In this document: positions 609 through 54,310 of the stretch, one piece after another
Layout: every line of letters starts with the position of its first letter
Numbering within the stretch: the stretch's first letter is position 1
Assembly (NCBI GenBank): GCA_046761045.1
Contig: JBHIFJ010000001.1
Span: forward strand, 11,795-75,794
Length of the DNA: 64,000 nt
Reading direction: 5' to 3'
DNA from: Thermoplasmata archaeon
Lineage (GTDB): Archaea; Thermoplasmatota; Thermoplasmata; RBG-16-68-12; JAGMCJ01
Translations under genes and position numbers: made by a program
Notes under the pieces: model-generated
The model's database searches: none
The model's input: only the letters and a program-made list of their open reading frames with translations
Told to the model about the DNA's origin: nothing

Positions 609-1742
609 ATGATACCCAAGGCCAGGTTGAGCGATCAGAAGCTGTACTGCTCCTTCTGCGGGACCGAAGTTAGGGAGGAGGAGATCAGCTGCAGCAATTG
701 CGGGTCCGATTTCAGGGACGAGATTGAGGCTGATCGCTGCACCTCCTGTCTATCCCTCATCCGTGCTGGTCTGGATGAATGCCCCAACTGCGGAACGGAA
801 GTGATACTTCTCGATGGCGAGCCCCCTCGCGAAGACGAAAAGCTCGAGGAAGATTTCCTAAGGGAGCTTGTGGAAAGCACATCCCTCGTGGACGCCTCTC
901 ATCGAATTTGGGAGCTGGCGGAGCCTTTCCAGAGAGTCATTAGGCTGAGGAGAAAGAAGCTCGAGCAAATGAACTCTCTTCTCGACTCGGCCCAGAGGAG
1001 AATCGCGGAACTCGAGAACGCCACAAACGAGGTCGAAATGATGGAGAGGGCTGAGCTGGAACGACAGGTGGCTCAGCTGACGGAGGAGAGGAATGAGATC
1101 TTGGAGATAGAGAGGGGAATCATCGAGATGGAGAAGATATACAGAAACCTGCTGTCACTTCAAGAAACCGAGCTCAAGAGGAAGGAGGACAACCTGAAGC
1201 TTAGGCTCGAGGTCTTCAGAAAGGAAATCGAACGGAGGGACAGGGAGAAGAAGAGGCTTCTTCAGTGGGAACGGACCCTGAAGGAGAAGGAGAGAACATT
1301 GCACGAAAAGGCCGAGGAAGTGGAGAGGAGACAGGAAGCATTGGAGAAGCGCAAGAGGGAATTAGAGGCTTCGGAACGACGCATCGTTGAACAACTTGAA
1401 GCCAACCAGGCGGAATCCGGAGAGGCGAGAACGGCGGAAGGAGAACTCTCACAGCTCAAGGATGCCGCCGACAGAGAGCATCGTGAGGAAGGGAACGAGA
1501 AGATTGCGTCACTTGAGAGCAGGATAGGAGATCTCGAGAGCGAAATGTCGAGAATAGTCAAAGCCAAGGAGGTTCTTGAGCAGCAGGCCCTCCAACTTTC
1601 CGATCAGAACCACGAGATGAAGTACGTTCTCAAGAAACTCGATGCACTGCTTGGAGAGTTGCCCGACAACGTCATTCAGGAGTTCGCCAAGTCGAAGGAC
1701 TTCAAGAAGTATGAGAAGGTCATCGAGAGCTGCGAAGGGTAG
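609..1742 (+). CDS. Double zinc-ribbon plus coiled-coil protein (hypothetical)
   Basis: 377 aa; two CxxC..CxxC pairs in first 70 aa (CSFCG..CSNCG; CTSC..CPNCG) followed by ~300 aa heptad-like E/R/K/L-rich segment; 8 nt upstream of giant coiled-coil ORF. Confidence 0.6.
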   Translation: MIPKARLSDQKLYCSFCGTEVREEEISCSNCGSDFRDEIEADRCTSCLSLIRAGLDECPNCGTEVILLDGEPPREDEKLEEDFLRELVESTSLVDASHRIWELAEPFQRVIRLRRKKLEQMNSLLDSAQRRIAELENATNEVEMMERAELERQVAQLTEERNEILEIERGIIEMEKIYRNLLSLQETELKRKEDNLKLRLEVFRKEIERRDREKKRLLQWERTLKEKERTLHEKAEEVERRQEALEKRKRELEASERRIVEQLEANQAESGEARTAEGELSQLKDAADREHREEGNEKIASLESRIGDLESEMSRIVKAKEVLEQQALQLSDQNHEMKYVLKKLDALLGELPDNVIQEFAKSKDFKKYEKVIESCEG

Positions 1743-1750
1743 TGTGAATC

Positions 1751-4700
1751 ATGGGTCTGAGAGAGAGAGCCAAAGAGATGCTTTCTGAGGGCGTCGAGGC
1801 GGAAGAGGTCGAGGTCTACGATGAGACTGAGGAACTCAGAGAAGAGATCGAGAGATTGAAGGAGGAACTGAAATCAGTCCGTGGGGAGATGGATTCCCTT
1901 CGCGATGAGCTTGAGGAGCGGGAGAAGGAGATTTCCACACGTGAGAGACAGATTAAGGAAGCCGAGGAAGAACTCGCAGCCACAAGGAGGCAGCTCAAGA
2001 AGGCCGAGAAGGCATCCGAGCGGTTCACAAAGGACGAGAAGAGAAAGCTGGAGGCTGAGATCAAGAAGCTGAAGGCCGACCTGGAGAAGAGTGAGGGGCA
2101 CCTCAAAGAACTGGAGGAGACGCTCAAATCCACGCGTGATGAACTTGGACTCAAGGCCAAGGAGGCGAAGAAAGCCAACAAGCTGGCCGAGGAAGTCAAG
2201 AAGCTGCAGGATCATCTGAAGAGTGTTGCGAAGGAACGGGAGCAGGAGGAGAAATCCCGCTCAGAGCTTGAGGAGAGGGCGTCAGAGCTTCAGAGCGAGA
2301 TTGAAGCAAGGGATAAGCGAATCTCGGAACTGGAGAAGGAGATTGAGGAGAGAGAGAGCAAACACAGGTCGTTCGACAAAGATGCCGAGTCTCTGGAGAG
2401 AAAGAAAAAGGCCTTGGAACGGAAGAGAAGAAAGATCAGAGCTGTCGAAAAGGAATTGCGGTCAAAGGAGAAAGACGTGCGTGAGTTGGAGCAGTCTCTC
2501 AAAGAGAGGGAGAAGGAAATCGAGGAGAAATGGAGAGAGACTGAGGAAGAGCTGGAGAGGACAAAGAAGGAGTTGGAGACAAGGGAAAAGGAACTGATCG
2601 ATAGGGAGGCCGTTCTTGCTGAAGAGCGCAAAGATCTGGAAGGCATCCGCAATGGCATGAGCCTGACGAAGGAAGAGCTCGGTGAGAGGGAGGCCCAACT
2701 GCTCAAGAGGTGGGAGGAGGCAGAGGCCAAGGTCAAGGAGATTGAGCGTCGTGAAACCATGCTGAAGGAGGCCATGAAATCCTTCTCCGAGGAGTCCAAG
2801 AGATCGTCAAGCAAGAAGAGGTCACTCACCCTCAGAGAGAAGAACCTTCAAAGGAAAATGGAAGAATTCGAGCAGAATCTCCAGTCTTGGAAACAAGAGA
2901 AAAAGGCAATGAAGGCCCAAGAGAGAAAGTTGAAAAAGAGCATGGAGCAGGAGAGAAGGGCCCTAGACCTCGGGAAAGCAGAACTGGAGAAGCGCGAGGA
3001 ATCCGTAGCCGCGAAGGAGAAGGAACTCAGGCAGGCTGTGAAGGATCAAGAAGCTGAAGGGAAGAGACTTGACCAGGAGGGCAGGGACATCTTCAAGCGA
3101 AAGGAGAAACTCGAGAAGTGGCGGGAGAAACTCTCTGACAAGGAGGTCCAACTGAAGGAGAGGGAGATCCAGCAGAGGAAACAGGAGAAGTTCCTGACAT
3201 CCAGGGAGAAAATGCTTGAGGCCAAGTACACCGAACTCGCGGAGCTGGAAGCGAATCTGGAAATCCAAAGAGAGACACTGCTGGCTAGGGAGAAAAGAGT
3301 GAAGCGAATTGAGGCCGAGAGTGAGGATCAGCTGTCGATTCTGAAGGATAAACAGAAGGCGATTTCCGCCAAGGCGAAGGAACTGAAGAACAAGGACCGA
3401 AGGATAGCAAAGAGGGAAAAGGAACTCCTCGCCAAGGAAGACGAGTTGTCATTCAAGTTCGATGAGATATCCGAGATTGAGGAGTCCCTGATTGCCTACA
3501 GGGAAAGGCTCAAATGGATGGAGGAGGAGATGCGAAGCAGAGAAAAGGACCTGAAGGATGTTGAGGCCCGCTTGGCCAGTGAAAGGGAAGAGATGGGAAG
3601 GGAGAAGGAGGCGTTGAAGGAACGAGAGTCCATAGTTGTGAAGAACGAAGACGAGGCTAGCACGAGACTCTCCGAGGTCAGAAAGAGGGAGAAAGCTCTG
3701 CAACAAGAGACAAGGCAACTCGAGAAAGAGAGATTGGAGCTGGACAAAAGCCTGAGGAATCTGAACAAGAGTGTGGAGGTCTTTGAGCGGGAGAAGTCAA
3801 GGACAGAGAGAAGCCTCCATAAACAGCAGGAGGAGATCAATCGAGAACTCGTGAAGATCAGGAAGGAGAAGGACCTCCTGGGCAAGAGGAAGAGGGGACT
3901 CAACGTACTGGAGGGAGAGATCGAAGGAAAGAAGATTGCGATAGACGAAATGGAAAAAGAGATGGCAAGAAAAATGGACAGACTGAAATCCGATGAGGAA
4001 GACCTCAAGAAACGAATGGACTATGTGGAAAAAAGGGAGGCGGAGATATCTGAGTTCGAGGCGGATCTTGTGGGTAGGGAGGACGAGGTCAGCCTCCAGC
4101 GCACGGAGCTTGAGAAGAAGAAATCTGCCCTGCAGGAATTGGAGGAACGCCTAGCGGAGGAAGAGAAGCGGATGGCAAAGGAGAAGCTGAAGCTCGACGA
4201 ACTCTGGAAGAACCTTGGGCGGGAAGGCAAACGCCTGGAAGGTCTCAGAAGAGCAACCCTGGAGGAGGAGAAGACCATCAAGGAGAAGAGAAAGAAGCTT
4301 GACAAGAAGGCAGAGAAACTGCTTGAGTCGGAGACCAAGCTCAACCTGAAGAAGAAGGAATTGGAGAGCAGAGAGGAAGAACTCCGCGAGGGCATAGAGA
4401 AGATAGGAAGGGATCAAGAGGAGCTCAGGTCAAGGGCAGAAGAACTCGGGCAGTTTGAAAGGAAGCTCTCAAAATGGTCCAAAGAGTTGGAGGAAAAGCA
4501 GAACAGCCTGGATCAGCGTAGTGTGGAGCTCGAGGCCGAGCGAAAGAAGCTTGAGAACTTGGAGACGGAACTGCCGACGAAGCTCAGCTCTCTTGAGGCC
4601 AAGGAAAGGGCTCTTGCCGAGAAGACTCTTGAACTGGAGAGGACATCCAAGCTGATTGATCAGGAGATGAGCAGATTCGAGGACGAGAGGGAGGATCTTA

Positions 4701-5338
4701 GGGAGAGAGAGAAAGAAATCGCAGAGATGAAGAAGACATCAGCCTCGCTGCTGGAATACGCGGAATCCTTGGTCGAGAGCAAGAAAACCAAGATGAAAGA
4801 GGAGATTGAGGAAGCCCTCCTGGAACTCGAGTCGAGGCAGAAGGAAGTTGACGAGAAGATGAGGATTGCGGAGGAGGCCTTGGCAAGGAAGGCCGAGGTC
4901 GAGGATTCCATCAAGAGCCTCAAAGAAAAGGAATCAGAGATGCTCGTCCTGAAGAAAGAGCTCGAGCTCGAAAGAGAATCCCTTCGAAAGGAACGAAAGA
5001 GCGTAAACGAAATGCTGAGTAGGATCGAGAGGGAAAGCCAGAATCTCTCTGAGCGGGAGAAGAGATTGGAGAAGGAGGTTGAGAGGGCCCTAGCCAAGGA
5101 GAGAAAGAGGCTGAAAGCCGAATCCAAGAGGCTGAAGGAAGAGCAGAGGGAAGTTTCGAAGACCTTGGAGGAGCTCAGGGTCAGGGAGAAGAACCTCGAA
5201 AGGAAGGAAAAGGAGATATCCTCTCTCGAAGAGAAGAACCGCAGGAGAGAGCGGGAGCTTCTGAAGGCCCGAGAGGAGGTTGAGACGAGGTCAAAGCGCA
5301 TCGATGAGATGAGGGCCAGATTGTCCAAGATCCTCTAG
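1751..5338 (+). CDS. Giant coiled-coil protein (1195 aa), E/K/R-rich, no NTPase motifs seen
   Basis: Single uninterrupted ORF; composition dominated by E,K,R,L with recurring heptad-like periodicity from residue ~20 to the C-terminus; no GxxxxGK[ST] P-loop; opposite-strand ORFs are low-complexity Ser/Leu artefacts. Confidence 0.7.
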   Translation: MGLRERAKEMLSEGVEAEEVEVYDETEELREEIERLKEELKSVRGEMDSLRDELEEREKEISTRERQIKEAEEELAATRRQLKKAEKASERFTKDEKRKLEAEIKKLKADLEKSEGHLKELEETLKSTRDELGLKAKEAKKANKLAEEVKKLQDHLKSVAKEREQEEKSRSELEERASELQSEIEARDKRISELEKEIEERESKHRSFDKDAESLERKKKALERKRRKIRAVEKELRSKEKDVRELEQSLKEREKEIEEKWRETEEELERTKKELETREKELIDREAVLAEERKDLEGIRNGMSLTKEELGEREAQLLKRWEEAEAKVKEIERRETMLKEAMKSFSEESKRSSSKKRSLTLREKNLQRKMEEFEQNLQSWKQEKKAMKAQERKLKKSMEQERRALDLGKAELEKREESVAAKEKELRQAVKDQEAEGKRLDQEGRDIFKRKEKLEKWREKLSDKEVQLKEREIQQRKQEKFLTSREKMLEAKYTELAELEANLEIQRETLLAREKRVKRIEAESEDQLSILKDKQKAISAKAKELKNKDRRIAKREKELLAKEDELSFKFDEISEIEESLIAYRERLKWMEEEMRSREKDLKDVEARLASEREEMGREKEALKERESIVVKNEDEASTRLSEVRKREKALQQETRQLEKERLELDKSLRNLNKSVEVFEREKSRTERSLHKQQEEINRELVKIRKEKDLLGKRKRGLNVLEGEIEGKKIAIDEMEKEMARKMDRLKSDEEDLKKRMDYVEKREAEISEFEADLVGREDEVSLQRTELEKKKSALQELEERLAEEEKRMAKEKLKLDELWKNLGREGKRLEGLRRATLEEEKTIKEKRKKLDKKAEKLLESETKLNLKKKELESREEELREGIEKIGRDQEELRSRAEELGQFERKLSKWSKELEEKQNSLDQRSVELEAERKKLENLETELPTKLSSLEAKERALAEKTLELERTSKLIDQEMSRFEDEREDLREREKEIAEMKKTSASLLEYAESLVESKKTKMKEEIEEALLELESRQKEVDEKMRIAEEALARKAEVEDSIKSLKEKESEMLVLKKELELERESLRKERKSVNEMLSRIERESQNLSEREKRLEKEVERALAKERKRLKAESKRLKEEQREVSKTLEELRVREKNLERKEKEISSLEEKNRRRERELLKAREEVETRSKRIDEMRARLSKIL

Positions 5339-5368
5339 ACCGGAATTTTTCGTCAGGCTTTTATAGGT

Positions 5369-8212: not shown

Positions 8213-9007
8213 TTGACCTTGCTTAGGGACCTTAGAGAGACAACTAAGCTCCTCATCCTGCTGGAGATGATTAGACGGGAGCATTCCAAGCTCAAGACGC
8301 TTGCCGAGAGATTTGGAATGACCGTTCAGGGTGTCTCCGACTACCTGAGGATGATGACCTCCGAAGGCTTGGTTCACAACATCGGGGGCATGTACAAACC
8401 CACGAAACGAGGTGTTCAGTTCTTGCACGACGGATTCTCCGAACTGAAGAGATTCATCGAATCATCTGCGAAAGACCTGGCAATAATAGATGTCTGCTGG
8501 GCAATCGCTGCATCGGACATCAAGAAGGACGAGAGGGTGGGGCTTGTCATGGAAAACGGCTACCTGATAGCACACCCGAGAAAGAAATCACCCTCGACAG
8601 GGCGAGCATTGTTCGACGGCAAGAAAGGCCAGGATATCGCGGTGACAGAACTGGATGGCATCGCCAGTCTCAAACCAGGCAGAATAGTGATTGGGAAGAT
8701 CCCCGGAACTGAGCGGAAAGGCAGTAGAGGAGCGAGCATTCCCAAACTGAGACGCCTGATGAAGGAGGAGAGTCCAGATCTCGTTGCCATTTCGGGTGCC
8801 TCAGCGAAGGCTCTTGTCAAGAGCGCAGGGCTGAGACCCGACATCGAGTTCGCGTCTTTGGCGGCTTCGCTGGAAGCGAGCGAGAAGGGTCTGAATGTGC
8901 TCTATCTTTGCGGGGAAGAGCACTGCAATGAGGTCATGTCGCATATTCTCGAGAGGAATTCGAGTTCCGAGGATGCGATAGATTTCGAGGTAGTTTCGCT
9001 GGCATGA
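8213..9007 (+). CDS. Winged-helix transcriptional-regulator-like protein with uncharacterised C-terminal domain
   Basis: 264 aa; N-terminal ~70 aa resembles a wHTH (LKTLAERFGMTVQGVSDYLRMMTSEGLV); starts 1 nt after ABC ATPase stop (TTG start, alternative ATG downstream). Confidence 0.4.
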   Translation: MTLLRDLRETTKLLILLEMIRREHSKLKTLAERFGMTVQGVSDYLRMMTSEGLVHNIGGMYKPTKRGVQFLHDGFSELKRFIESSAKDLAIIDVCWAIAASDIKKDERVGLVMENGYLIAHPRKKSPSTGRALFDGKKGQDIAVTELDGIASLKPGRIVIGKIPGTERKGSRGASIPKLRRLMKEESPDLVAISGASAKALVKSAGLRPDIEFASLAASLEASEKGLNVLYLCGEEHCNEVMSHILERNSSSEDAIDFEVVSLA

Positions 9008-12922: not shown

Positions 12923-12966
12923 TTCCCATGCGAAAGCCAGCCCTCCTCTATTACGTTTTTCGTGAA

Positions 12967-12976
12967 AACCTTTAAG
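12967..12976 (+). promoter_or_regulatory. Putative TATA box (CTTTAAGT) for hisS
   Basis: AT-rich element ~30 nt upstream of ATG at 13001; lies inside the GTG-extended ORF-track call, arguing for the downstream start. Confidence 0.3.
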
Positions 12977-13000
12977 TCAACGCTGCTCAATCGGCCGGCA

Positions 13001-14269
13001 ATGATTCACCGCCCGAAAGGCACCAGAGATTTCTCGGTCGAGGAAATGGATAGGCACAACCAGGTCGAGAGTCTGTTTCGAGATGTGTGCAGGCGCTTTG
13101 GCTTCAGGGAGATCCGGACGCCGACCTTCGAGCATACCGAACTGTTCACCGCCCGCTCTGGGCCCGGAGTCGTGAGAGACATGTACTCCTTCAAGGACAA
13201 GGGTGGGAGAGAGATCTCTCTAAGGCCAGAGGTCACAGCATCCGTGTTTCGCTATTTTGTCAACGAAATGAGGAATGCGCCCAAACCGCTCAAGTGGTTC
13301 TACATGGCGAACTGCTTTCGATATGAGGAGCCTCAGATGGGACGGTACAGGGAGTTCTATCATTTCGGGGCCGAGCTCATAGGGGCCAAGCCTCTCTATG
13401 GGGACGCTGAGATAGTGTCTCTCGCTATGGATTGCCTGTCCTCGACCGGAATAAAGAGAATGGATGTCCGCGTAGGCAACATAGGCGTCCTCAGAGGAAT
13501 CCTCGACATTCCCCGCGAAGAGCAGACGAGGTGTCTGCAGTTGCTGGACAAAAGGGACTTCGATGGTGTCAAAGCAAGGCTTGAATCGTTGGGCAGAACC
13601 GAGTTGTATGGGACATGCGTCGATCTGGTGAACCTTCGCGGCGGAGAAGAGATTATTGACGAGGGTTGCGAACTCGTTTCCTCAGAGTCTGTCAAGACTC
13701 AACTCGAGTATCTTCGTGCCCTTGAAGGGAGACTGAGGAACTATGGAGTGGAGGATTTCGATCTGGACCTTGGTGTCATAAGGGGACTGGACTACTACAC
13801 GGGAATGGTCTTCGAAGTGGACTCTCCAGACCTCGGGGCAGAGAAGCAGATATGCGGCGGAGGATCGTATTCCTTCGCGGATGCTATTGGAGGCGGAGAC
13901 ATCTTCTCCACCGGATTTGCGATCGGCTTTGACAGGGTCCTTTTGGTTCTTGAGAAGCAAGGAATCGAGATGCCATCTTCAAAGCTCGACGCATTTGTAG
14001 TACCCATCGGGAAAAGCATGCAGGAGAGCGCTCTGCAAGTCCTTCGTAAGTTGCGAGAGGCCGGATTGTCCTCTGACATCGATCTGAACGAAAGGGGTCC
14101 CTCCAAGAACTTGGACTATGCGAACTCTGTCGGTGCAAGATTTGTGGTTCTCGTTGGTGAGGATGAGTGGTCCAGAGAATCGGTGTCCGTCAGAGAGATG
14201 GAATCTGGCGATCAGAAGGAGGTCCCAGTTGAGCGGTTGGTGGAGGAGGTCTCCACCATGCTCCATTAG
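13001..14269 (+). CDS. hisS: Histidyl-tRNA synthetase
   Basis: Class II aaRS motifs: motif1 region EIRTPTFEHTELF, motif2 FRYEEPQMGRYREFYHFGAE, motif3 GGGSY; C-terminal anticodon-binding domain; start moved to ATG 13001 (MIHRPKGTRDF) from GTG 12962. Confidence 0.85.
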   Translation: MIHRPKGTRDFSVEEMDRHNQVESLFRDVCRRFGFREIRTPTFEHTELFTARSGPGVVRDMYSFKDKGGREISLRPEVTASVFRYFVNEMRNAPKPLKWFYMANCFRYEEPQMGRYREFYHFGAELIGAKPLYGDAEIVSLAMDCLSSTGIKRMDVRVGNIGVLRGILDIPREEQTRCLQLLDKRDFDGVKARLESLGRTELYGTCVDLVNLRGGEEIIDEGCELVSSESVKTQLEYLRALEGRLRNYGVEDFDLDLGVIRGLDYYTGMVFEVDSPDLGAEKQICGGGSYSFADAIGGGDIFSTGFAIGFDRVLLVLEKQGIEMPSSKLDAFVVPIGKSMQESALQVLRKLREAGLSSDIDLNERGPSKNLDYANSVGARFVVLVGEDEWSRESVSVREMESGDQKEVPVERLVEEVSTMLH

Positions 14270-14342
14270 CGCCCCGAACGGAATTTGAATCCGTGTCCCG
14301 AGCTCGACAGGCTCGGATGATAGGCCGCTACACCATCGGGGC
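14270..14342 (-). tRNA. tRNA-Asp (anticodon GTC)
   Basis: Reverse complement folds as a cloverleaf: acceptor GCCCCGA/TCGGGGC, anticodon stem CGAGC/GCTCG with loop CTGTCGA (GTC), T-arm CGGATTCAAATTCCG, discriminator G; no encoded CCA; TATA-like CTTAATATT ~30 nt upstream on the minus strand. Confidence 0.8.
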
Positions 14343-22332: not shown

Positions 22333-24729
22333 CTAGGCTCTTGCCTTGAAGGCCTTCATCGTCTTGTTGAATTCCTTGTCCGTCACTTCTGACATAATCT
22401 TGTGCATTTCCTTCATCTTCGATGCGAATCTCTCGGCCTCCGCAGCTGAAATCCATTCGAGCTGGAGCCTGTTCGGGTCTATTCCCATCTTCTCCAGTTT
22501 CCTCTTCCATCTCTTTACTCTCTTGAGGGTCTGTTGGTTCGCATTGATATAGTGACAATCCTGGAGATGGCATCCCGAGACGAGCACGGCAGCAGCTCCC
22601 CTCTCAAACGCCCTCATGATGAACTTCTCTGCAACGCGGCCTGAGCACATTGTCCTGATGACGCGGGAGGAACTCGGATACTGCATCCTGGACACTCCGG
22701 CCAGATCTGCACCTGCGTAGGAACACCAGTTGCAGGCGAAGACGAGAACCTTATTGTGCGGGTCCCGCTCGAGCGCATGGTCGATTTGCGAAATGATTTG
22801 GTCATCCGTGAAATGTCTCATAGTTATGGCATCGTTGGGGCACTGAGCCCCACATGTTCCGCAACCTGCACAGGCCGCTTCCACAACGAACGCGAGTTTG
22901 GCATCCTTGTCCGCGGTTATCGCACCATAGGGGCACACCTTCTCGCAGGCGCCGCAGCCAGTACATCTCTCCTCATCCACTATGGGGGTGAGAGCCTCCA
23001 CCGTGACCTCTCCGCGTATCATGAGCCTGTTCGCCCTTGCTGCCGCGGCGGAGGCCTGAGTGACGCTCTCCTTTATGTCCTTGGGGGCCTCAGCACTTCC
23101 CGCCAGGAAGACTCCCCCGGTCGGCGTGTCAATGGGCTTGAGCTTCGGATGGGCTTCCAGGAAGAAGCCGTTCGAATCTGTCGATATGTTCAGAAGCCTC
23201 TGAATCTCCTCCTTGTCGTCCTGCGGTTCCAGTCCAATGGAGAGAATCACCATTCCGAAATTGGTGTCATAGATCTCCTGGAGCGTCGTGTTTTCTCCTC
23301 TGACTCTGAGAGTTCCGTCAGGATTCAGCTTGATGTCGAATGGCAGTCCCCTTATGAATCTGACCCCCTCCTCCTTGGCCCTCTTGTATAGGTCTTCGAA
23401 TCCCTTTCCGAAGGCTCTGATATCCATATAGAACACGGTGATATCGATTTCCGGCCAGTGCTCCTTGATCAAAAGAGCATCCTTTATCGTCTCCATACAG
23501 CAAACATTGCTGCAATACGGGTTTCCTCTGTCCTCGGTTCTCGAACCCACGCACTGTACGAAGGCCACGTTTCTTGGTTGCTTCGCATCGCTGGGCCGTA
23601 TGAGATGACCCTCTGTGGGTCCTGATGCGTTTATCAGCCTCTCAAATTCCAACGTCGTAAGCACATCTGGGTACTTTCCATAGCCATATTCCTCGAGGTC
23701 GCGCGGATCAAATGATTTCATCCCTGTCGCGACTATTATCGTCCCCACTTCGAGCTGAACCTCCTTCTCTGGTTCCATGTCAAAGTCAATCGCCTCCCTT
23801 TCGCAGGCTTCGATGCATTTGGCACAAGCCCTGACGTTCGGCTCGTTCAAGCAGAGGTCCATGTCAACGATGTAGCTGGAGGGGACGGACTGCGGGAAGG
23901 GTATGTATACTCCCTTTCTCGTCGTGAGTCCGAGGTCGAACTCGTTCGGCGACGTGACAGGGCAAACATCTGAGCAATCCCCGCAGGCCGTGCAATCGGC
24001 GGTGACGTAGCGGGCTTTCTGCATGACAAGAGCGCTGAAATTGCCGATGTAGCCATCGATGTGCTCTACTGTAGCGTTTGTCAGCACCTCGACATTCGGA
24101 TGTCTGCCGACTTCCGACATCTTTGGGGCGAGTATGCAGATTGAACAATCCATCGTGGGAAAGGTCTTGTCGATCTGTGCCATCCTTCCGCCTATGCTCG
24201 GCTCCTTCTCAACGAGATAGACTTGGTATCCACAGTCACCCAGATCGAGAGAAGCCTGAATTCCGGCCACGCCTCCACCGATGACCAGCGCGCTCTTTCT
24301 TACGGGAACCTTCTTCTCCACCTGCGGCTTCAGCAGTCGAGCCTTGGCGACAGCCATGGCAACAAGGTCCTTCGCCTTCTCCGTCGCTCCTTCCTTGTCG
24401 TGGAGATGAACCCAGCTGCAGTGCTCCCTGATGTTGGCCATCTCGAGAAGGTATCTGTTCAGCCCCGCCTCCTCGCAGGCATTTCTGAACGTCTCCTCAT
24501 GAAGTTTGGGCGAGCAGGAAGCAACGACGACCCTGTTGAGCCCATGCTCCTTTATGTCGTCCTTTATCTTCTGTTGTCCTGGCTCAGAGCAGGTGTACAT
24601 GTTGTGCTCCGCATAGACCACATCATCCAGAGTCTTTGCATGCTCCGCGACTTCCTCGCAGTGAACTGTTGCCCCTATGTTGAGGCCGCAGTGGCACACG
24701 TAAACGCCAATTCTGATCTCCTCTTTCAT
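22333..24729 (-). CDS. hdrA: Heterodisulfide reductase subunit A fused to MvhD-like domain (HdrA-MvhD)
   Basis: 798 aa from ATG 24729 (MKEEIRIGVYVCHCG); N-terminal 4-Cys domain, FAD GxGxxG (ALVIGGGVAGIQ), inserted and C-terminal 2x[4Fe-4S] CxxCxxCxxxCP motifs; last ~140 aa match MvhD (VFACNWCSYAGADLAG..CSGRV..GCHLQDCHY); start 4 nt after hdrBC stop. Confidence 0.85.
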   Translation of the reverse strand: MKEEIRIGVYVCHCGLNIGATVHCEEVAEHAKTLDDVVYAEHNMYTCSEPGQQKIKDDIKEHGLNRVVVASCSPKLHEETFRNACEEAGLNRYLLEMANIREHCSWVHLHDKEGATEKAKDLVAMAVAKARLLKPQVEKKVPVRKSALVIGGGVAGIQASLDLGDCGYQVYLVEKEPSIGGRMAQIDKTFPTMDCSICILAPKMSEVGRHPNVEVLTNATVEHIDGYIGNFSALVMQKARYVTADCTACGDCSDVCPVTSPNEFDLGLTTRKGVYIPFPQSVPSSYIVDMDLCLNEPNVRACAKCIEACEREAIDFDMEPEKEVQLEVGTIIVATGMKSFDPRDLEEYGYGKYPDVLTTLEFERLINASGPTEGHLIRPSDAKQPRNVAFVQCVGSRTEDRGNPYCSNVCCMETIKDALLIKEHWPEIDITVFYMDIRAFGKGFEDLYKRAKEEGVRFIRGLPFDIKLNPDGTLRVRGENTTLQEIYDTNFGMVILSIGLEPQDDKEEIQRLLNISTDSNGFFLEAHPKLKPIDTPTGGVFLAGSAEAPKDIKESVTQASAAAARANRLMIRGEVTVEALTPIVDEERCTGCGACEKVCPYGAITADKDAKLAFVVEAACAGCGTCGAQCPNDAITMRHFTDDQIISQIDHALERDPHNKVLVFACNWCSYAGADLAGVSRMQYPSSSRVIRTMCSGRVAEKFIMRAFERGAAAVLVSGCHLQDCHYINANQQTLKRVKRWKRKLEKMGIDPNRLQLEWISAAEAERFASKMKEMHKIMSEVTDKEFNKTMKAFKARA

Positions 24730-24733
24730 CTCA

Positions 24734-25849
24734 TCACGACTCCAACGACTCAGCCAACATGACGAACAGATCCTTGACCTCCGTGTTGACATCGCTCGGC
24801 TCATCCAAAGCGCACCTGAAGTGTATCAAGCATTTCGGGCACGCGGTTATCATCACATCGGCAATCTGAGATGCTTCCTTCAAGCGGCTCACCTGAATTC
24901 TCTTTGAGTCTTGATCGCAGTTCATCCAGCAGGAGGTCCCACAGCAGACTGACTTCTTTCTGTTGTCCTCCATCTCCACCAGTTCCAGGCCAGGAACCGA
25001 AAGCAATAGCTCTCTCGGGGCCTCGTAGATTCCTTGGAACCTTCCCAGTCTGCAGGAATCCTGATATGTGACCTTCTTTCCGTTCTCCTTGAACCTCAGG
25101 TCATCAAGTCTCTTCTCCAGGAAGTTAGACAGGTGGTGCAGCTCGATATCCTCCCTGAGGTCCACATAGTCCTCCTTGAAGGTGTTGTAGCATTCTGGGC
25201 AAGTGAAGACGATTTGCTTCACCTTGGACCGATTGATCATGGCAGTGTTCAGCTCGGCCAGCTCCGCAAACGTGTCTGTCTCTCCAGACCAAAGCATATC
25301 ATGACCACAACACACCTCATTCCTGAGAAGTCGTGGCTTGATGCCGATGCTGTTGAGCAGCGTTATCGCGCTCTTGGTAATCTCGGTGTGACTCCCCACG
25401 TCGCCTAGAATCAGGTCGTAGTAGGGTGCACAGCCTACAAACAGAAGAGTGGTGCCTCGGGTGTCTGTTTCCAATGAATCATCCAGCCATCCCAGTCTCT
25501 TCTGCTTCAGCTGACCGCTTGCCATTAGTCTCGCCATCGAGTGGAGAATCCCAGCGTGGGCACAGTCGCCATGGTCGTCACGCTTGACCAGTATCGCTCT
25601 GATTTCCCTCACAAAGACAGGGTAGTGAACGTCGGACGGACAATACTGGGAGCACGCCTCACATGTGAGACATTCCCACATCTCATTGGGATCGATTCTC
25701 TTCTCGCCGTAGGCGAGAATCCTCTCGACGATTCTTCGCGGGGAGTAGATGTTTCCGTTGTATGTGAGTGGACAGGCGAGCGTGCACTTGCCGCACGAGT
25801 AGCACATCTGGACCCGGTTTTCCTTGATGACCTCACCCAGTTCCATCAC
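24734..25849 (-). CDS. Heterodisulfide reductase HdrC-HdrB fusion (ferredoxin + two CCG domains)
   Basis: 371 aa; N-terminal 2x CxxCxxCxxxCP (CYSCGKCTLACP; CLTCEACSQYCP) = HdrC; C-terminal CCG motifs (NEVCCGHD; KSVCCGTSCW) = HdrB. Confidence 0.8.
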   Translation of the reverse strand: MMELGEVIKENRVQMCYSCGKCTLACPLTYNGNIYSPRRIVERILAYGEKRIDPNEMWECLTCEACSQYCPSDVHYPVFVREIRAILVKRDDHGDCAHAGILHSMARLMASGQLKQKRLGWLDDSLETDTRGTTLLFVGCAPYYDLILGDVGSHTEITKSAITLLNSIGIKPRLLRNEVCCGHDMLWSGETDTFAELAELNTAMINRSKVKQIVFTCPECYNTFKEDYVDLREDIELHHLSNFLEKRLDDLRFKENGKKVTYQDSCRLGRFQGIYEAPRELLLSVPGLELVEMEDNRKKSVCCGTSCWMNCDQDSKRIQVSRLKEASQIADVMITACPKCLIHFRCALDEPSDVNTEVKDLFVMLAESLES

Positions 25850-26265: not shown

Positions 26266-29253
26266 CTAAGCCCATCCCTCCAGACTCTCGATGATTCTGT
26301 CAAGCTGATCGCTCGTGCATCCGTAGACATCCAGCGCGCCAGTTGGGCACGCAACAACACAAGCACCACATCCCTTGCAGAGCACAGTATTCACCATTGC
26401 TGTTTTGATGTCTTCCGACTCCACAACCTCGATTGCGCCGAAATCGCAGACCTCAACACACCTACTGCACCATCTGCATCGTGATTCATTGACGTGAGCG
26501 ACCAAGGGCTCGACTTCTATTCTGTCCTTGGAGAGTAGCCCGAGAGCTTTCGTCGCAGCTCCTCTGCCTTGGGCAATGCTCTCGTCTGAAGGCTTCGCGG
26601 AATGGGCGAAGCCACATAGGAAGATGCCGTCGGTCGCGAATTCAACCGGCCTGAGCTTTCGGTGTGCTTCCAGGAAGAAGCCGTCCCCGCTCAGGGGGAC
26701 CTTCAGTATCTCGGACAGCTTCTCGTTGTCCGGATTCGGTCTTATGCCCGCGCTCAGAATCAGGTATTCCGGTTCGAGGAGAACATCCTCCATCAGGAAT
26801 GTGTCCTTCACGACGACATGCAGCTTCCCCTTCTCCTCCCTCACCTCGGGGGGATTCTCATCGTTGTATCTCAGGAATATGACGCCCCTCTTGGACGCCT
26901 CTCGATAGAACCTCTCCCTGAATCCATACGTCCGTATGTCCTTGTAGAGGACATAGACGGGCGTATCATGATATTTCCTCTTCACCCACAAGGCGTTCTT
27001 GATGGATGTGGAGCAGCATATGCGACTGCAGTTGTGATACTCGGGCACGCGAGAGCCCACGCACTGTATTATCACTATGCTCCTGGGATTGAAGTCCTCG
27101 TGGAGCATCCTCTCCTCCAGCTCGAGCTGGGTCATGACGTGGTCGCTCCTTCCGTACAGATACTCGGTGGGTCTGTACTCGACCGCGCCCGTGGCGACTA
27201 TGACGACCCCGTGATCGATATCGCTCCCATCCGCAAGCGTGGTGTGAAAGTTCCCAACGAATCCGTCGAGGGACTCGACCTCCGTTCCCATGTGCAATGT
27301 GATTCTGTCGTTGCTCCTCACACTCTCTATCGTGTCCGTGAGGAGCTTCTGAGGATCCATTCCCCTCAGCGTATGCGTTATCCTTCTCAGGTTCCCGCCA
27401 AGCTCGTTCGTCTTCTCGACGAGATGCGTCTTTATTCCGTGCTCCGCGAGGGACAGCGCGGCTGTCATCCCCGACAGTCCGCCTCCTATCACGAGGGCGG
27501 TCCTGTTGACGGGGACGGATACCTTCTGGAGGGGTTCCAGAAGCCTTGCCTTCGCGATCGCAGCCGCAACGAGTCCCTTGGCCTTCTCCGTCGCCTTCTC
27601 AGGCTCCTTGGAATGTACCCACGAACAGTGCTCGCGTATGTTCGCCATCTCGAAGAGATAGGGATTCAGTCCCGCCTCCCTTATCGTCTCCTGGAAGAGT
27701 TTCTCATAGGACCTTGGTGAGCAGGATGCAACGACGACCCGATTGAGGTCATGCTCCCTTATGGACTCCTTGATCCTCTCCTGGGTCGTGACGGAGCATG
27801 TGTACAGATTGTCCTCAGCGTGAACGACGTTGGGCAGCGTCCCAACGTACTCGACGACGGAGGGAACGTCCACGACACCGCCTATGTTGATTCCGCAGTG
27901 GCATACGAAGACACCGATGCGGGGGGCTTCCACTTCAACCGAGGTCCCCTCTGGCGAATCCTTGCGAGCTTTGACCTCTTCGAAAACGGGGGTGACCAGA
28001 GAGGCTGCCGATGACTGGCACACCGAGTCCGGGATGTCCTTCGGTTCAGCTATGGTTCCCGCAACGTATACGCCGGGTCTCGTGGTCTGAAAGTTCTCAA
28101 AGGAGATCGTCCTGAAGAAACCATAATCGTTGAGTTCCGCGCCAAGGACCTTGCTGAGCCCTTCCGCGTCCTTCGGCGGTCTCATCCCAACCGACAACAC
28201 GACAAGGTCGAACTCCTTGTCCTCAATCTTGTCATTCTCAGGATACCTGGTGAGGACTGCACCGCTAGGGGCGGGCTCGAGTGCCGAGACCCTATTCCCT
28301 CTGTAGATTCTTATGCCGTGCTCCTCTTCGGCCCTCATCCTGAAGTCTTCGAACTCCTTGCCAAAAGCCCTCAGGTCTATGGAGAAGATGTGGATGTCGA
28401 CTGACGGGTTATGCTCCTTCGCCACAATCGCCTCCTTCAGCGCGTACATGCAGCACACGGAGGAGCAGTACTCTCCTCCGTATACGACGGATCTGCTTCC
28501 CACGCACTGAATGAACGCGATGTTCTTGGGCTCCCTTCCGTCGGAGGGCCTCACCACCCTTCCCTGTGTCGGACCGGATGCGCTGAGGAGCCTCTCGAAC
28601 TCGAGGCTCGTTATGACATTCGGAAGGACGCCGTATCCGTACTCGTGTATCACGGAGGGATCGAAGACATCCGCTCCGGATGCGATTATGACGCTTGCCA
28701 CCTCTATCCTCGTCTCCTCCTCTCTCTGATCGAACTCTATGGCCTGCGCCTCGCAGAACTTCTCGCAGGCCCTGCATTTTCCCGTCTTGAAGTAGATGCA
28801 GTTGTCCCTGTCTATGACATATGTGGAGGGAACGGATTGCGGATATGCCCTATATATCGCCTTTCTGATGGAGCTGCCGGCATCGAACTCATTGAGCACC
28901 TTGGCGGGACACTTCTCGGAGCAGATTCCGCAGGCGACGCACTTCTCCTCGTTCACATACCTGGGATTCCTCCTTATCACGGCGGTGAAGTTCCCCCTCT
29001 CTCCCTCGAGCGCCATGAGCTCGGCGTTTGTGAGAAGCTCTATATTGGGATGTCTTCCCGCCTCCACGAGCTTGGGAGAGAGTATGCACATTGAACAATC
29101 ATTCGTGGGAAAGGTCTTGTCAAGCTGAGCCATCCGACCGCCGATGAATGGGGAGCTTTCGAGAATCGTCACCTGTGCGCCAGCGTTGGCTATATCAATG
29201 GCGCTCTGGATGCCAGCGATTCCTCCTCCTATCACAAGGATGCCCTTGTCCAA
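26266..29253 (-). CDS. Tandem-duplicated HdrA-like flavoprotein (995 aa)
   Basis: First module (aa 1-~430): FAD motif VIGGGIAGIQ, inserted ferredoxin, lacks N-terminal Cys cluster; second module (~aa 440-995): VFVCHCGINIGG Cys-cluster domain, second FAD motif LVIGGGLSGM, C-terminal 2x[4Fe-4S] (CRWCSRCVEVC; CKGCGACVVACP). Begins 1 nt after korG stop. Confidence 0.8.
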   Translation of the reverse strand: MDKGILVIGGGIAGIQSAIDIANAGAQVTILESSPFIGGRMAQLDKTFPTNDCSMCILSPKLVEAGRHPNIELLTNAELMALEGERGNFTAVIRRNPRYVNEEKCVACGICSEKCPAKVLNEFDAGSSIRKAIYRAYPQSVPSTYVIDRDNCIYFKTGKCRACEKFCEAQAIEFDQREEETRIEVASVIIASGADVFDPSVIHEYGYGVLPNVITSLEFERLLSASGPTQGRVVRPSDGREPKNIAFIQCVGSRSVVYGGEYCSSVCCMYALKEAIVAKEHNPSVDIHIFSIDLRAFGKEFEDFRMRAEEEHGIRIYRGNRVSALEPAPSGAVLTRYPENDKIEDKEFDLVVLSVGMRPPKDAEGLSKVLGAELNDYGFFRTISFENFQTTRPGVYVAGTIAEPKDIPDSVCQSSAASLVTPVFEEVKARKDSPEGTSVEVEAPRIGVFVCHCGINIGGVVDVPSVVEYVGTLPNVVHAEDNLYTCSVTTQERIKESIREHDLNRVVVASCSPRSYEKLFQETIREAGLNPYLFEMANIREHCSWVHSKEPEKATEKAKGLVAAAIAKARLLEPLQKVSVPVNRTALVIGGGLSGMTAALSLAEHGIKTHLVEKTNELGGNLRRITHTLRGMDPQKLLTDTIESVRSNDRITLHMGTEVESLDGFVGNFHTTLADGSDIDHGVVIVATGAVEYRPTEYLYGRSDHVMTQLELEERMLHEDFNPRSIVIIQCVGSRVPEYHNCSRICCSTSIKNALWVKRKYHDTPVYVLYKDIRTYGFRERFYREASKRGVIFLRYNDENPPEVREEKGKLHVVVKDTFLMEDVLLEPEYLILSAGIRPNPDNEKLSEILKVPLSGDGFFLEAHRKLRPVEFATDGIFLCGFAHSAKPSDESIAQGRGAATKALGLLSKDRIEVEPLVAHVNESRCRWCSRCVEVCDFGAIEVVESEDIKTAMVNTVLCKGCGACVVACPTGALDVYGCTSDQLDRIIESLEGWA

Positions 29254-34461: not shown

Positions 34462-37197
34462 ATGGGAAGACGGTTTGCTAGTCTGTGGGCAGTAATTGTG
34501 GTTGCGTTGTTCGTCGGCTCAGCCTTTGTTGGTTTCAGCTATATTTCTGAGACCTCCGGGTCCAAGGAAACAACTACCCCTGCTATCGGATGTCGGGGCG
34601 GATCAAGCCCCAGGAAGGTGTTGTTGGAGAAGTTCACAGCCGATTGGTGTCCTCCGTGTGTTTCGCAAGGACACACGATCAAGAGGCTGGAACATGAGTT
34701 TGGCCATGAGAACCTTGTGGTTCTGGTCTACCACACTTCTTCTTCCGATCAGTTCTATGTCACGGATATCTCCACTCGCCCTGGATTCTACGCTGATTCA
34801 GGCTACTATTTCCCGACTGTAATCATCGACGGAGGTGGTCCCTATACTGGGGACAGCAACACGCCCTCGCCGAATGGAGCTGAGCTGTGGGACATTGGCG
34901 GTTCCGTTTCAAACAGATACAACAACTACAACAACGACAGGGGAATGATCGAACAGGAACTCCCGCCCTCGGAAATGAGCAACATCACGATAGAATTGTC
35001 AGGCAACATCACGGGAGACACAGGATACGTGCACGCCCGAATCACGGCCACAGATCCAATCACCGAAACCAACCTAAAGGTCAGATTCATGGTCTATCAG
35101 AACCACAACTATCACAGAGACAGCAATACAGCAGAGAACGCAGCGGGGCACAAGAGGGTGTACGACAGAATCGTGCGCAAGGTTCTGAATGAGGAGAGCC
35201 TTCCTCCAAGCTTCAACATGGGCGATTCAGTGGAGTATCACAAGACCTTCCAGGTGGGTCCATGGAACGGGACATTGCCCGATAGTCACACTCAACCCGA
35301 CAAGAGAAATCTCGGGGTTGCAGTCTTTGTCCAGACGGACAACAGAAATATGTGGCATCACAGTGCCTATGGTAAGGATTTCTACAACGCCCCTGTTCTG
35401 CAGGCCGAGGCATACGACTTTGTCGAGAGCACCGTTCTCCTGGTCAATGGGGACAACACTGATACTCTTGACAATGGCTTTGAGAGATTCGAGGATGTGA
35501 TGGCGAAGGTCGGGGTCCCATACGACGTCTGGGATACCCTCGAACCCGGTGATTCCAATGTTCAGAATCTGAGGACGATGCCAGGACTGGCGGATATCGG
35601 GAAGTACGGGGCACTCGTTTGGTTCACTGGGGAGGCGACATCCACACTGTCGATGACCGACAGGACAAACCTGCAAGCGTATCTGGGAGCCACTGGAAGC
35701 TTGTTCGTCACCGGTGAGGATATCGGCCAGGACGCCCAGAGCAACGGCTGGGCCGGATGGCTACTCACCAATCTCCATGCTAGCTTTGTAACTGACACTG
35801 TCATCTATACTACTGCCGAGGGAGTCCCCGCAGACCCGATTACAAATGGGCTCTCAGGTCTGAATGTGGTCGACTCTTCGCCGAGTCGCATTTCTCCGGG
35901 TTTGGGTGCATATGAGATCCTCCGATACACTGGGACCACGAATGTGGCGGGCATCAGGGCCACTCATGACGCCGATTCGCGGGTGGTCTACATTTCATTC
36001 GACTATTTCGAGGGAACCAACACCTATCCCTCCGATCCGAATGCGGAAGCAGTAATGGACAATACCGTCTACTGGCTTGATGGTGTGGCCCCTCCCACAG
36101 TCCAAATCAGCAAGCCTCAGGCCGGCGACCTAGTTCTTCGTGAGACATGGTACACCATCCAGTGGTCCGCACACGACGTCGATATCCCAGAGGACGGTGT
36201 CGACATCGAGTACAGCACGGACTCCGGCATGACCTGGAATGCCGTTACGTCAGCTGATGTGAACGATGGCGCCCACTACTGGTTTGTCCCTGCCGTCTCC
36301 TCCAGCAACTGCAAGGTTCGAGTCTGCGTGCGGGATTCCAATGGCCAGCAATCCTGTGACGAAACAGGACTCTTCAGGATTGGGACACCGAATCTCCCGC
36401 CCGAACCCCCCATGCTTACAGCCGCCTATCTCAGCGGCGGCTCTCAGGATGTGACTCTCGCTTGGGACAAGTCCGCCGATGATGGTGGGGGATTCAACGA
36501 TGTCGTAGAGTATGACATCTATGCGGCTCCCACTCTTGGGGGCCTCCAGACATACATCGGCAGTGAACCGGCGACGGGCGCTGCAAGCTACACCTGGACA
36601 TGCGTCGGATGCGGTGACGGCGACCCGAACCAGTACTTCTTCTATGTGTGGGCTGACGACGGCGAGGAGGTGACGGCCTCTTCTGTGGTTGCAGGGAAGT
36701 TCGTAAGACCTCTTGCGACTGGATGGAATCTGGTTTCGGTGCCACTAATACAGACAGATACATCTGCAAGCGTTGTCCTTCAGACGGTGAACTCAGGGAG
36801 GGCTGTCTATTACGATGCCGCTGATCAGGCCGACCATTGGAAGGACTACGACACCAACCAGTATGTCAATGACCTGGAGGGCATCGATAGAACCATGGGA
36901 TTCTGGCTGTACAGTCCCGCTCCCGACGATTTCGTTGTTGCGGGGATTGTCCCCGATTCCACTGACGTTTACCTGCAGATAGGATGGAACCTCGTCGGGT
37001 TCCCGTCCTTCAGCACAACCTACACGATCCAGGACATGATGTCAATCACTTCAGTCAATGAGGCGGAGGCATTTGATGCAGTGTCCACACCATATCTTCT
37101 CAAGGCAGTTTCGCCAGCGGGCGCCGACCAGATGGTCCCAGGGGATGGCTACTGGGTCTACGCGACCTCCGTGAGTACGTGGACAGTTCTACAGTAG
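34462..37197 (+). CDS. Large secreted multidomain protein with N-terminal thioredoxin-like (WCPPC) domain
   Basis: 911 aa; signal/anchor MGRRFASLWAVIVVALFVGSAFVG; TlpA/ResA-like WCPPC redox motif at aa ~62; many NxS/T sequons; internal beta-rich Ig/FN3-like segments (duplicated GWNLVxxP motif); strong SD AGGAGGAGG. Confidence 0.65.
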   Translation: MGRRFASLWAVIVVALFVGSAFVGFSYISETSGSKETTTPAIGCRGGSSPRKVLLEKFTADWCPPCVSQGHTIKRLEHEFGHENLVVLVYHTSSSDQFYVTDISTRPGFYADSGYYFPTVIIDGGGPYTGDSNTPSPNGAELWDIGGSVSNRYNNYNNDRGMIEQELPPSEMSNITIELSGNITGDTGYVHARITATDPITETNLKVRFMVYQNHNYHRDSNTAENAAGHKRVYDRIVRKVLNEESLPPSFNMGDSVEYHKTFQVGPWNGTLPDSHTQPDKRNLGVAVFVQTDNRNMWHHSAYGKDFYNAPVLQAEAYDFVESTVLLVNGDNTDTLDNGFERFEDVMAKVGVPYDVWDTLEPGDSNVQNLRTMPGLADIGKYGALVWFTGEATSTLSMTDRTNLQAYLGATGSLFVTGEDIGQDAQSNGWAGWLLTNLHASFVTDTVIYTTAEGVPADPITNGLSGLNVVDSSPSRISPGLGAYEILRYTGTTNVAGIRATHDADSRVVYISFDYFEGTNTYPSDPNAEAVMDNTVYWLDGVAPPTVQISKPQAGDLVLRETWYTIQWSAHDVDIPEDGVDIEYSTDSGMTWNAVTSADVNDGAHYWFVPAVSSSNCKVRVCVRDSNGQQSCDETGLFRIGTPNLPPEPPMLTAAYLSGGSQDVTLAWDKSADDGGGFNDVVEYDIYAAPTLGGLQTYIGSEPATGAASYTWTCVGCGDGDPNQYFFYVWADDGEEVTASSVVAGKFVRPLATGWNLVSVPLIQTDTSASVVLQTVNSGRAVYYDAADQADHWKDYDTNQYVNDLEGIDRTMGFWLYSPAPDDFVVAGIVPDSTDVYLQIGWNLVGFPSFSTTYTIQDMMSITSVNEAEAFDAVSTPYLLKAVSPAGADQMVPGDGYWVYATSVSTWTVLQ

Positions 37198-54235: not shown

Positions 54236-54310
54236 GGACGTGTGGCCTAGCCTGGATATGGCACCAGCCTCCTAAGCTGGCAGTCGGGGGTTCGAATCCC
54301 CCCACGTCCG
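54236..54310 (+). tRNA. tRNA-Arg (anticodon CCT)
   Basis: Cloverleaf: acceptor GGACGTG/CACGTCC, anticodon stem CCAGC/GCTGG loop CTCCTAA (CCT), T-arm GGGGGTTCGAATCCCCC, discriminator G; no encoded CCA. Confidence 0.85.

Follow-up and report, generated by a model that had tools for sequence, protein, structure and literature searches.

The 64,000-nt stretch of DNA analyzed here (the window; positions 11,795 to 75,794 of contig JBHIFJ010000001.1 from a Thermoplasmata archaeon, assembly GCA_046761045.1) raises the question of what an archaeal cell does with a protein of 1195 amino acids (aa) that appears to consist of coiled coil alone. The gene for this protein (the giant) lies 8 nucleotides (nt; TGTGAATC) after the gene for a 377-aa zinc-ribbon protein (the small protein), which itself follows a nitroreductase-family gene after 18 nt. 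The original prediction, made from the letters of the window, had described a two-gene module of structural character, and its coordinates for the two coiled-coil open reading frames (ORFs) agree exactly with the ORF list. We are highly confident that the two genes encode a real, conserved and head-less coiled-coil pair. They belong to a conserved set of three genes rather than two, and a structural role would be the most reasonable reading of the head-less heptad rod.

The giant is a heptad protein without globular domains

The giant is dominated by a few residues (E 23.9%, K 15.4%, R 11.5%, and L 12.3%; E+K+R = 51%) and contains a single Pro (P942) and no Cys. A Pfam search at E ≤ 1 returned nothing except CCDC-167 (16.6 bits), with no match to SMC_N, AAA_23, SMC_hinge or Rad50_zn_hook, and the P-loop pattern G....GK[ST] has no match in the protein. 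Homology to the intermediate filament (IF) rod (PF00038) or to characterized coiled-coil-rich proteins (CCRPs) could not be identified in Pfam or by PDB sequence search, and the PDB contains no sequence relative of the giant. Several NCBIfam models gave sub-threshold matches, including SMC_prok_B (5.5e-26; 90.7 bits vs. a cutoff of 567), SMC_prok_A, Rad50 and ASRP (1.6e-9). Each of these aligns only with coiled-coil stretches of its profile (profile positions 741–939 for SMC_prok_B) and reaches at most 16% of the curated cut-off. The PADLOC matches to JetC (9e-13) and LmuB and the PHROGs matches to tape-measure proteins (7.6e-5 to 3e-3) are likewise weak, partial and restricted to coiled coil.

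The Fourier spectrum of the strongly hydrophobic residues has its peak at 3.51 residues with a power of 15.1, compared to a maximum of 2.0 in 100 shuffled sequences, and the heptad phase is thus coherent over most of the giant. A Viterbi assignment of the register scored 214 vs. 36 ± 8 in shuffles, which bears out the heptad character that the original prediction had proposed to check. Seven register segments could be identified (residues 1–93, 94–141, 142–319, 320–638, 639–1007, 1008–1113, and 1114–1195). The junctions between them are three stutters, two skips, and one stammer, all of them discontinuities typical of coiled coils, at positions that close orthologues share, and the segment lengths of 369, 106, and 82 residues are identical between orthologues. 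Strongly hydrophobic residues make up 21–23% of the giant; they occupy 58% of the a and d positions (63% including Ala) vs. 8% elsewhere. The a position is rich in Leu and Ile, about 40% of the d positions hold R, K or E, and both e and g are rich in Glu. Pairs of E/D(i) and K/R(i+4) number 108 vs. 88 ± 7, an excess of less than three standard deviations. From this pattern we take the giant to be a genuine coiled coil with a weak core and not a single α-helix domain.

Single-sequence AlphaFold2 modeling predicted, at low confidence, that the giant is about 96% helical, with neither strands nor a globular part. Residues 1–28 are modeled as coil and residues 29 to 1194 as helix, which leaves no room for the head halves of an SMC or Rad50 protein. 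Taken with the domain searches, the pattern scan and the lack of Cys, the model upholds the view that the giant has no globular, P-loop or SMC head or hinge motifs. About seven helix breaks are predicted (130–132, 206–209, 301–306, 349–359, 462–465, 803–814, and 941–956), none of them near the midpoint of the protein (~598). The picture of one continuous coiled coil is therefore right as to the heptads and wrong as to their being uninterrupted, given six register discontinuities and the predicted breaks. If fully extended, 1166 helical residues at 0.1485 nm each would form a rod of 173 nm, in line with the figure of 170 nm given earlier; as the giant may fold back at the breaks, this length is an upper bound. 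Long internal repeats were not seen in the giant, since autocorrelation gave only heptad multiples and weak lags of 144 and 151 residues and BLASTP found no off-diagonal self matches. Neither the giant nor the small protein has any 19-residue window near transmembrane hydrophobicity.

The giant ORF is not an assembly artefact. Tandem Repeats Finder and a repeat finder detected neither tandem repeats nor long direct ones in the DNA, only short compositional matches of roughly 70% identity, and full-length orthologues from independent assemblies are collinear with the giant at 55–67% identity. A collapsed repeat or a fusion of reading frames, named in the original prediction as a possible flaw, thus finds no support.

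The gene cluster is conserved across Thermoplasmata

Orthologues of the giant were collected via the neighboring small gene, and a metagenome scan with alignment A3 added 38 loci. Some of the loci are near-duplicates, and perhaps 10–12 distinct sequence groups are represented. In each of the 42 loci where 60 nt or more follow the small gene, a giant start of the MGLRxKAK type is found directly after it. In 37/37 loci with a usable upstream flank, the small gene is preceded on the same strand, within 200 nt, by a nitroreductase gene of 172–173 aa; the three apparent misses are contigs that start inside the small gene. The two coiled-coil genes are thus conserved neighbors, a point that the original prediction had proposed to check, and the module has to be extended by the nitroreductase gene. 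The nitroreductase is the best conserved of the three proteins (49–86% identity across loci). The small gene and the giant are –4 to +8 nt apart in most clades and 87–109 nt apart in the most distant one, and the short gaps suggest translational coupling. From the nitroreductase gene to the small gene the distance is greater and varies more.

Close relatives (L001–L003) have the same three-gene order with giants of 1252, 1195, and 1718 aa, which are collinear with the giant of the window at 55–67% identity, and their small proteins are 57–73% identical. The small protein itself is 100% identical to ACE5QF_00065, which is annotated as hypothetical in the NCBI metagenome-assembled genome (MAG) 'Thermoplasmata archaeon', and this match confirms that the DNA is archaeal. 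A genome scan yielded four more Thermoplasmata MAGs and a MAG labeled Methanomassiliicoccales (L008). In the latter the small protein is 32% identical and a giant of 1224 aa starts 4 nt downstream. This giant shares only 24% identity with that of the window (BLASTP E 0.49). Its N-terminal motif and coiled-coil nature are nevertheless retained, with an unbroken heptad run of 582 residues. In L009, L011 and L014, where the small protein is 22–28% identical, the nitroreductase, the small protein and a giant of 1526–1626 aa without a Pfam match are again found together. That the gene order is strictly kept although the giants have lost detectable similarity implies selection on the architecture, i.e., on the end peptides, the heptad rod and the joints.

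The genes downstream of the giant vary between clades, with ABC-transporter genes in the window clade and an AdoMet synthase gene on the opposite strand in the distant clade. As synteny beyond the giant does not extend to distant clades, and as a T5 run and a TATA-like element follow the giant, the three genes probably form a transcription unit that ends at the giant and has the nitroreductase gene as its likely first member. A gene for a DUF7839 protein (8213–9007, plus strand) stands after the Peripla_BP_2, FecCD and ABC_tran genes of the window and is syntenic in the window clade only (L001 and L002).

Several members of the family carry the automatic names 'chromosome segregation ATPase', 'pilus assembly protein FimV' or 'DNA repair exonuclease SbcCD ATPase subunit' (P0007, P0011, P0012, P0176, P0180, and P0191). 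These are misnomers that stem from coiled-coil composition, as no ATPase motifs are present. Annotation of the family as SbcCD or SMC ATPases is routine and worth correcting.

The giant has conserved ends and interruptions and a variable length

Among 38 giants the N-terminus follows the consensus MGLRxKAKK (M100 G92 L100 R97 x K73 A100, then K/R and K/E), and the C-terminal pattern L..LR..LE.LL is present in 23 of 26 complete giants. One short metagenome contig (L032, 1075–1762) has a giant that begins normally (MGLRQKAKRSVEEE...) and whose frame breaks after about 100 codons; the frame may be shifted, the contig chimeric or the gene a pseudogene.

Within the window clade the coiled-coil core is only slightly more conserved (0.71) than the surface (0.60–0.67). 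The best-conserved surface patches are found at residues 1–35, ~288–330, ~449–470, ~806–830, and ~946–990. In the most conserved internal patch (~940–990) the b, c and f positions reach 0.84–0.90 vs. a mean of 0.63, and P942 is conserved in orthologues. The surface patches coincide with predicted helix breaks, giving four or five conserved interruptions, and the rod may therefore carry conserved joints or docking sites.

The 26 complete giants vary between 942 and 1801 aa in length. A molecular ruler of fixed length, which we had first suspected from giants of 1195, 1224, and 1252 aa, is unlikely given this variation and was rejected. The longest giant (L017/L018, 1801 aa) shows a sharp autocorrelation peak for a spacing of 179 residues (z = 23), although composition-corrected BLASTP did not list these repeats. 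The periodicity suggests a recent internal tandem duplication of coiled-coil segments, which may explain the range of lengths.

The small protein combines zinc ribbons with a conserved helical block

The small protein starts with two consecutive CxxC-x(n)-CxxC knuckle pairs (C14-x2-C17-x10-C28-x2-C31 and C44-x2-C47-x10-C58-x2-C61), which is what defines a double zinc ribbon. Pfam Zn_Ribbon_1 passed its threshold (26.0 bits vs. a cutoff of 25) and DZR narrowly missed it (26.4 bits vs. 27.3). The family was aligned as 15 close relatives and as 20 diverse relatives (A2, 20–61% identity); in A2 all eight Cys residues are invariant or nearly so. A protein made of zinc ribbons and the same kind of coiled coil as the giant had been proposed. 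The ribbons were correctly recognized, and the coiled coil proved to be only part of the remainder. The relatives share a layout of ribbons, an acidic linker, a conserved helical block, a variable coiled-coil spacer (~226–300) and a C-terminal motif of docking type.

AlphaFold2 modeling with the 15-sequence alignment gave a mean predicted local distance difference test (pLDDT) score of 76, with 85–95 across residues ~130–260. The model has short strands in residues 1–62, long helices at 93–134, 141–267, and 277–350, and a small helix-turn-helix-helix cap at 353–376. Foldseek found no match to it in the PDB at E ≤ 1e-3, and the PDB sequence search with the family returned generic coiled coils only. 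Profile searching of 1.84 billion cluster representatives gave 441 matches to the small protein, about 40 of which are full-length relatives of 350–480 aa. Precomputed matches of the family to PF27359 (TP_0179) are flagged 'weak' or 'faint'.

In one clade the giant lacks its C-terminal motif, the small protein lacks the EMExIYRN block and the intergenic gap is long; only there is the central helical block missing or divergent. This co-variation is compatible with an interaction between the EMExIYRN block and the C-terminus of the giant.

A C-terminal motif shared with other proteins

The small proteins end in a motif with the consensus LDxLLGxLPxxxIxxFAxSxxFxxYEKVL, here called the LP motif. 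D345, L348, L351, P352, F359, and Y368 are invariant among the 20 diverse relatives. The window contains a single copy. By profile search the LP motif is a mobile module that occurs in several architectures in both archaea and bacteria. It stands alone in proteins of 65–140 aa, is found in tandem (P0083, P0089, and P0097), makes up the N-terminus, on the cytoplasmic side, of one membrane or extracellular protein (P0118) and forms the end of other coiled-coil proteins (P0120 and P0153); P0105, P0121, P0138, and P0143 also belong to the LP-motif proteins. By eye, the same motif can be recognized in acidic bacterial PF27359 (TP_0179) proteins (P0188–P0191), which end in LLEALPxEKIQEFAsSxYFxMYKKL. 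No named family matched the LP motif in the NCBIfam and Pfam copies searched, and TP0179 appears in the literature solely as an uncharacterized treponemal ORF. As the LP motif is found by itself, as a tandem and joined to unrelated proteins, the pattern suggests a protein–protein docking module with a common partner that has not been described before. It is possibly of more consequence than the giant and is the most promising lead from this locus.

Possible roles of the module

The reading that we favor, although we hold it to be evenly poised between right and wrong, is that of a cytoplasmic structural rod with an adaptor, acting as tether, scaffold or filament. The giant would form a long rod, probably a two-stranded coiled coil, without an enzymatic domain, and its short conserved end peptides and few interruptions would provide joints or docking sites. 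The small protein, co-produced from the tightly coupled genes, might serve as the adaptor of this rod. Its helical block may bind a conserved part of the giant, possibly the C-terminal heptads, its paired zinc ribbons may bind some target, and its LP motif may plug the complex into a common cellular partner. Together the two proteins could then tether or scaffold over a long range, or form a filament, in the manner of CCRPs.

Several points weigh against this reading. With charged residues at d and Glu-rich e and g positions, an in-register parallel homodimer is not obviously favored, and the AlphaFold2 model of the giant, made from a single sequence, has low confidence (pLDDT 59.5; predicted template modeling score 0.23). 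The co-variation of the EMExIYRN block with the giant C-terminus comes from a single clade and is effectively one evolutionary event. A complex of the two proteins, filaments and a cellular location are putative, and the ligands, the oligomeric state, the extended shape of the rod and any part played by the nitroreductase are likewise inferred. The nitroreductase and ABC-transporter neighbors give no functional clue, and a purely structural model does not explain the invariant linkage to the nitroreductase gene.

This linkage could instead point to a redox or stress process centered on the nitroreductase, with the coiled-coil proteins as scaffold or regulator of the flavoenzyme. The nitroreductase is the most constant neighbor and the best-conserved gene of the cluster, and in the window it is separated from the small gene by a short gap; across loci, however, this gap is longer and more variable than that between the small gene and the giant, and the linkage could be mere conserved synteny within one class. 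The literature searched contains no precedent for such a process with giant coiled coils, and we know of no case that ties enzymes of the nitroreductase fold to them. We consider this explanation improbable. We also doubt, to a similar degree, that the module is a degenerate, split SMC/Rad50-like DNA organizer in which the giant folds antiparallel and the zinc-ribbon protein acts as a DNA-binding head in trans, bridging or compacting DNA independently of ATP. The SMC_prok_B, ASRP and JetC matches and the JGI labels of family members as SbcCD or chromosome-segregation ATPases would agree with it, and the conserved helix interruptions could equal elbow- or joint-like sites. Zinc ribbons also commonly bind nucleic acid; that the ribbons of the small protein anchor to nucleic acid is pure conjecture. 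The profile matches are, however, limited to coiled coil and fall far short of the cut-offs, there is no P-loop, and heads do not fit where only 28 residues at the N-terminus, and not one at the other end, are non-helical. A hinge is missing, a CxxC hook is precluded by the lack of Cys, the conserved cluster contains no ATPase gene, and helix breaks occur around 130, 207, 303, 354, 463, 808, and 948, with none close to the midpoint. The check for a cryptic ATPase head or hinge with Pfam, NCBIfam and the P-loop pattern was accordingly negative.

A monomeric single α-helix of the ER/K type, forming a stiff and charged spacer between two short binding peptides, is less probable still. The content of E, K and R, the charged d positions, the Glu-rich e and g positions and the slight enrichment of (i, i+4) pairs would suit it, but that enrichment stays below three standard deviations and the strong hydrophobics are gathered on one seam at a and d. 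In addition, heptad runs are coherent over 319 and 369 residues, and over 582 in L008, and a single α-helix needs no such coherence. The suggestion of a mobile-element, defense or phage protein, for instance of the tape-measure type, or of an artefact, draws on the PHROGs and PADLOC matches to tape-measure proteins, LmuB and JetC, all of which are compositional and limited to coiled coil. It is effectively refuted by the housekeeping synteny across clades down to 22–28% identity of the small protein, by the lack of DNA repeats and by the collinear orthologues from independent assemblies.

On a broader view, we put forward only tentatively that the module represents a new cytoskeletal or tethering system, in which a head-less rod of 140–270 nm, if extended, is coupled by a zinc-ribbon adaptor to a cellular hub through an LP docking code. 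If true, an organizing principle similar to that of IFs and lamins or of golgins would exist in Thermoplasmata, and the LP motif would be a widespread docking code that directs many archaeal and some bacterial proteins to the same hub. In the literature searched, whose coverage is incomplete, we found neither a description of this three-gene module nor a characterized coiled-coil-only giant in archaea, and the module is not described by Makarova et al. (2024; PMC10936438) in connection with ESCRT. Archaeal cytoskeletal and scaffolding proteins beyond the actin, tubulin and ESCRT families are little known. Many Thermoplasmata lack a rigid wall, and how such wall-less cells organize their interior and shape is a question on which the module may bear.

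Features of the locus and other genes in the window

The features of the locus are collected in Table 1. From ~1000 to 5300 the coding strand is purine-rich, with a GC skew near +0.3 and an AT skew near +0.45, as expected from GAR, AAR and AGR codons. Many long minus-strand ORFs with a high content of S, L and F run across both coiled-coil genes (1216–5328). They are a by-product of the purine-rich sense strand, which leaves few stop codons in the antisense frames, and are not genes.

Table 1. Features of the nitroreductase, small-protein and giant locus, in positions of the window.
Feature	Position	Strand	Basis
Nitroreductase-family gene, 172 aa	72–590	+	Pfam Nitroreductase 8.4e-30
Small zinc-ribbon protein gene, 377 aa	609–1742	+	ORF list
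Two zinc ribbons, residues 14–31 and 44–61, 4 × CxxC	648–791	+	Pfam Zn_Ribbon_1/DZR
Central helical block, residues ~80–225, EEDFLREL...ELAEPFQRVIRLRRKKL...EMEKIYRNLLSLQETELKRKE	846–1283	+	Dense invariant columns in alignments A1 and A3
C-terminal LP motif of ~40 aa, LKKLDALLGELPDNVIQEFAKSKDFKKYEKVIESCEG, helix-turn-helix-helix	1620–1739	+	Residues invariant family-wide
Giant coiled-coil gene, 1195 aa	1751–5338	+	ORF list
N-terminal peptide of the giant, MGLRERAKEMLSE, then acidic non-helical linker to residue ~28	1751–1789	+	Consensus of 38 giants, AlphaFold2 coil
Most conserved internal patch of the giant, residues ~940–990, around P942 and helix break	4568–4718	+	Surface conservation
C-terminal heptads of the giant, ending ...IDEMRARLSKIL-COOH	5246–5335	+	C-terminal consensus
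T5 run (5346–5350) and TATA-like TTTATA (5360–5365), between giant and ABC-transporter genes	5346–5365	+	Read from sequence
Antisense ORF, 222 aa (example)	4660–5328	–	
Antisense ORF, 179 aa (example)	2290–2829	–	
Antisense ORF, 170 aa (example)	3496–4008	–	

Elsewhere the window contains another large uncharacterized protein, a 911-aa ORF (34462–37197, plus strand) without a Pfam family at E ≤ 1e-5, and a 1062-aa protein with TPR repeats almost throughout (60613–63804, minus strand). A 713-aa multiheme cytochrome c (38662–40806, minus strand; Paired_CXXCH_1, Cytochrom_C552, and Cytochrome_C554) also has a CarboxypepD_reg domain. Near its gene lie genes for HdrA/FlpD-like Fe-S flavoproteins (22333–24804 and 26266–29253, minus strand), and together these form a notable redox set for a Thermoplasmata MAG. 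ARAGORN identified a tRNA-Asp (GTC) at 14269–14342 (minus strand), which is below the Rfam tRNA gathering score and abuts the end of the ORF at 12962–14269. The tRNA-Arg at 54236–54310 is the only site in the window that reaches this score.

Comparison with known systems

The coiled-coil composition that the giant has in common with SMC, Rad50 and ASRP proteins accounts for the sub-threshold matches and the misleading automatic names. Unlike these proteins, the giant has no Walker A/B heads, hinge, zinc hook or partner ATPase, and membership of the SMC/Rad50 group fails on every testable defining feature. The pair is not part of an archaellum locus either, and its placement outside the SMC, Rad50 and archaellum systems is supported.

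Golgins and EEA1 offer an analogy in design only, as very long rods on which zinc-binding domains or short motifs at the ends make the specific contacts; in EEA1 one end bears a zinc finger. They are unrelated to the giant in sequence, and in the archaeal module the zinc-binding region belongs to a different polypeptide, and we identified no domain for binding membranes. The bacterial PF27359 (TP_0179) proteins share the C-terminal LP motif with the small protein.

The closest kinds are the bacterial coiled-coil-rich and IF-like proteins and, in archaea, the RdfA-Sph3 pair. Crescentin, FilP, Scy of Streptomyces and the cyanobacterial CCRPs are likewise long heptad rods without an enzymatic domain, with discontinuities of the stutter type, and they are cytoplasmic and taken as structural, as the giant would be. 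Scy has a size of about 1300 aa. Pfam and PDB searches revealed no sequence homology to the CCRPs, and the giant differs from them in its archaeal host, its obligate zinc-ribbon partner gene, its nitroreductase neighbor and its conserved terminal peptides. CCRPs are discussed as cytoskeletal elements, and the RdfA-Sph3 system of haloarchaea, an adjoining gene pair, is implicated in cell shape (PMC10869688). RdfA-Sph3 is also an archaeal pair in which a small partner gene adjoins the gene for a large coiled-coil protein; unlike the giant, Sph3 is SMC-like with ATPase-type ends, and RdfA is not a zinc-ribbon coiled-coil protein. We therefore rate the present system as one of the coiled-coil-rich structural type, distinctive in its strictly conserved adaptor and operon.

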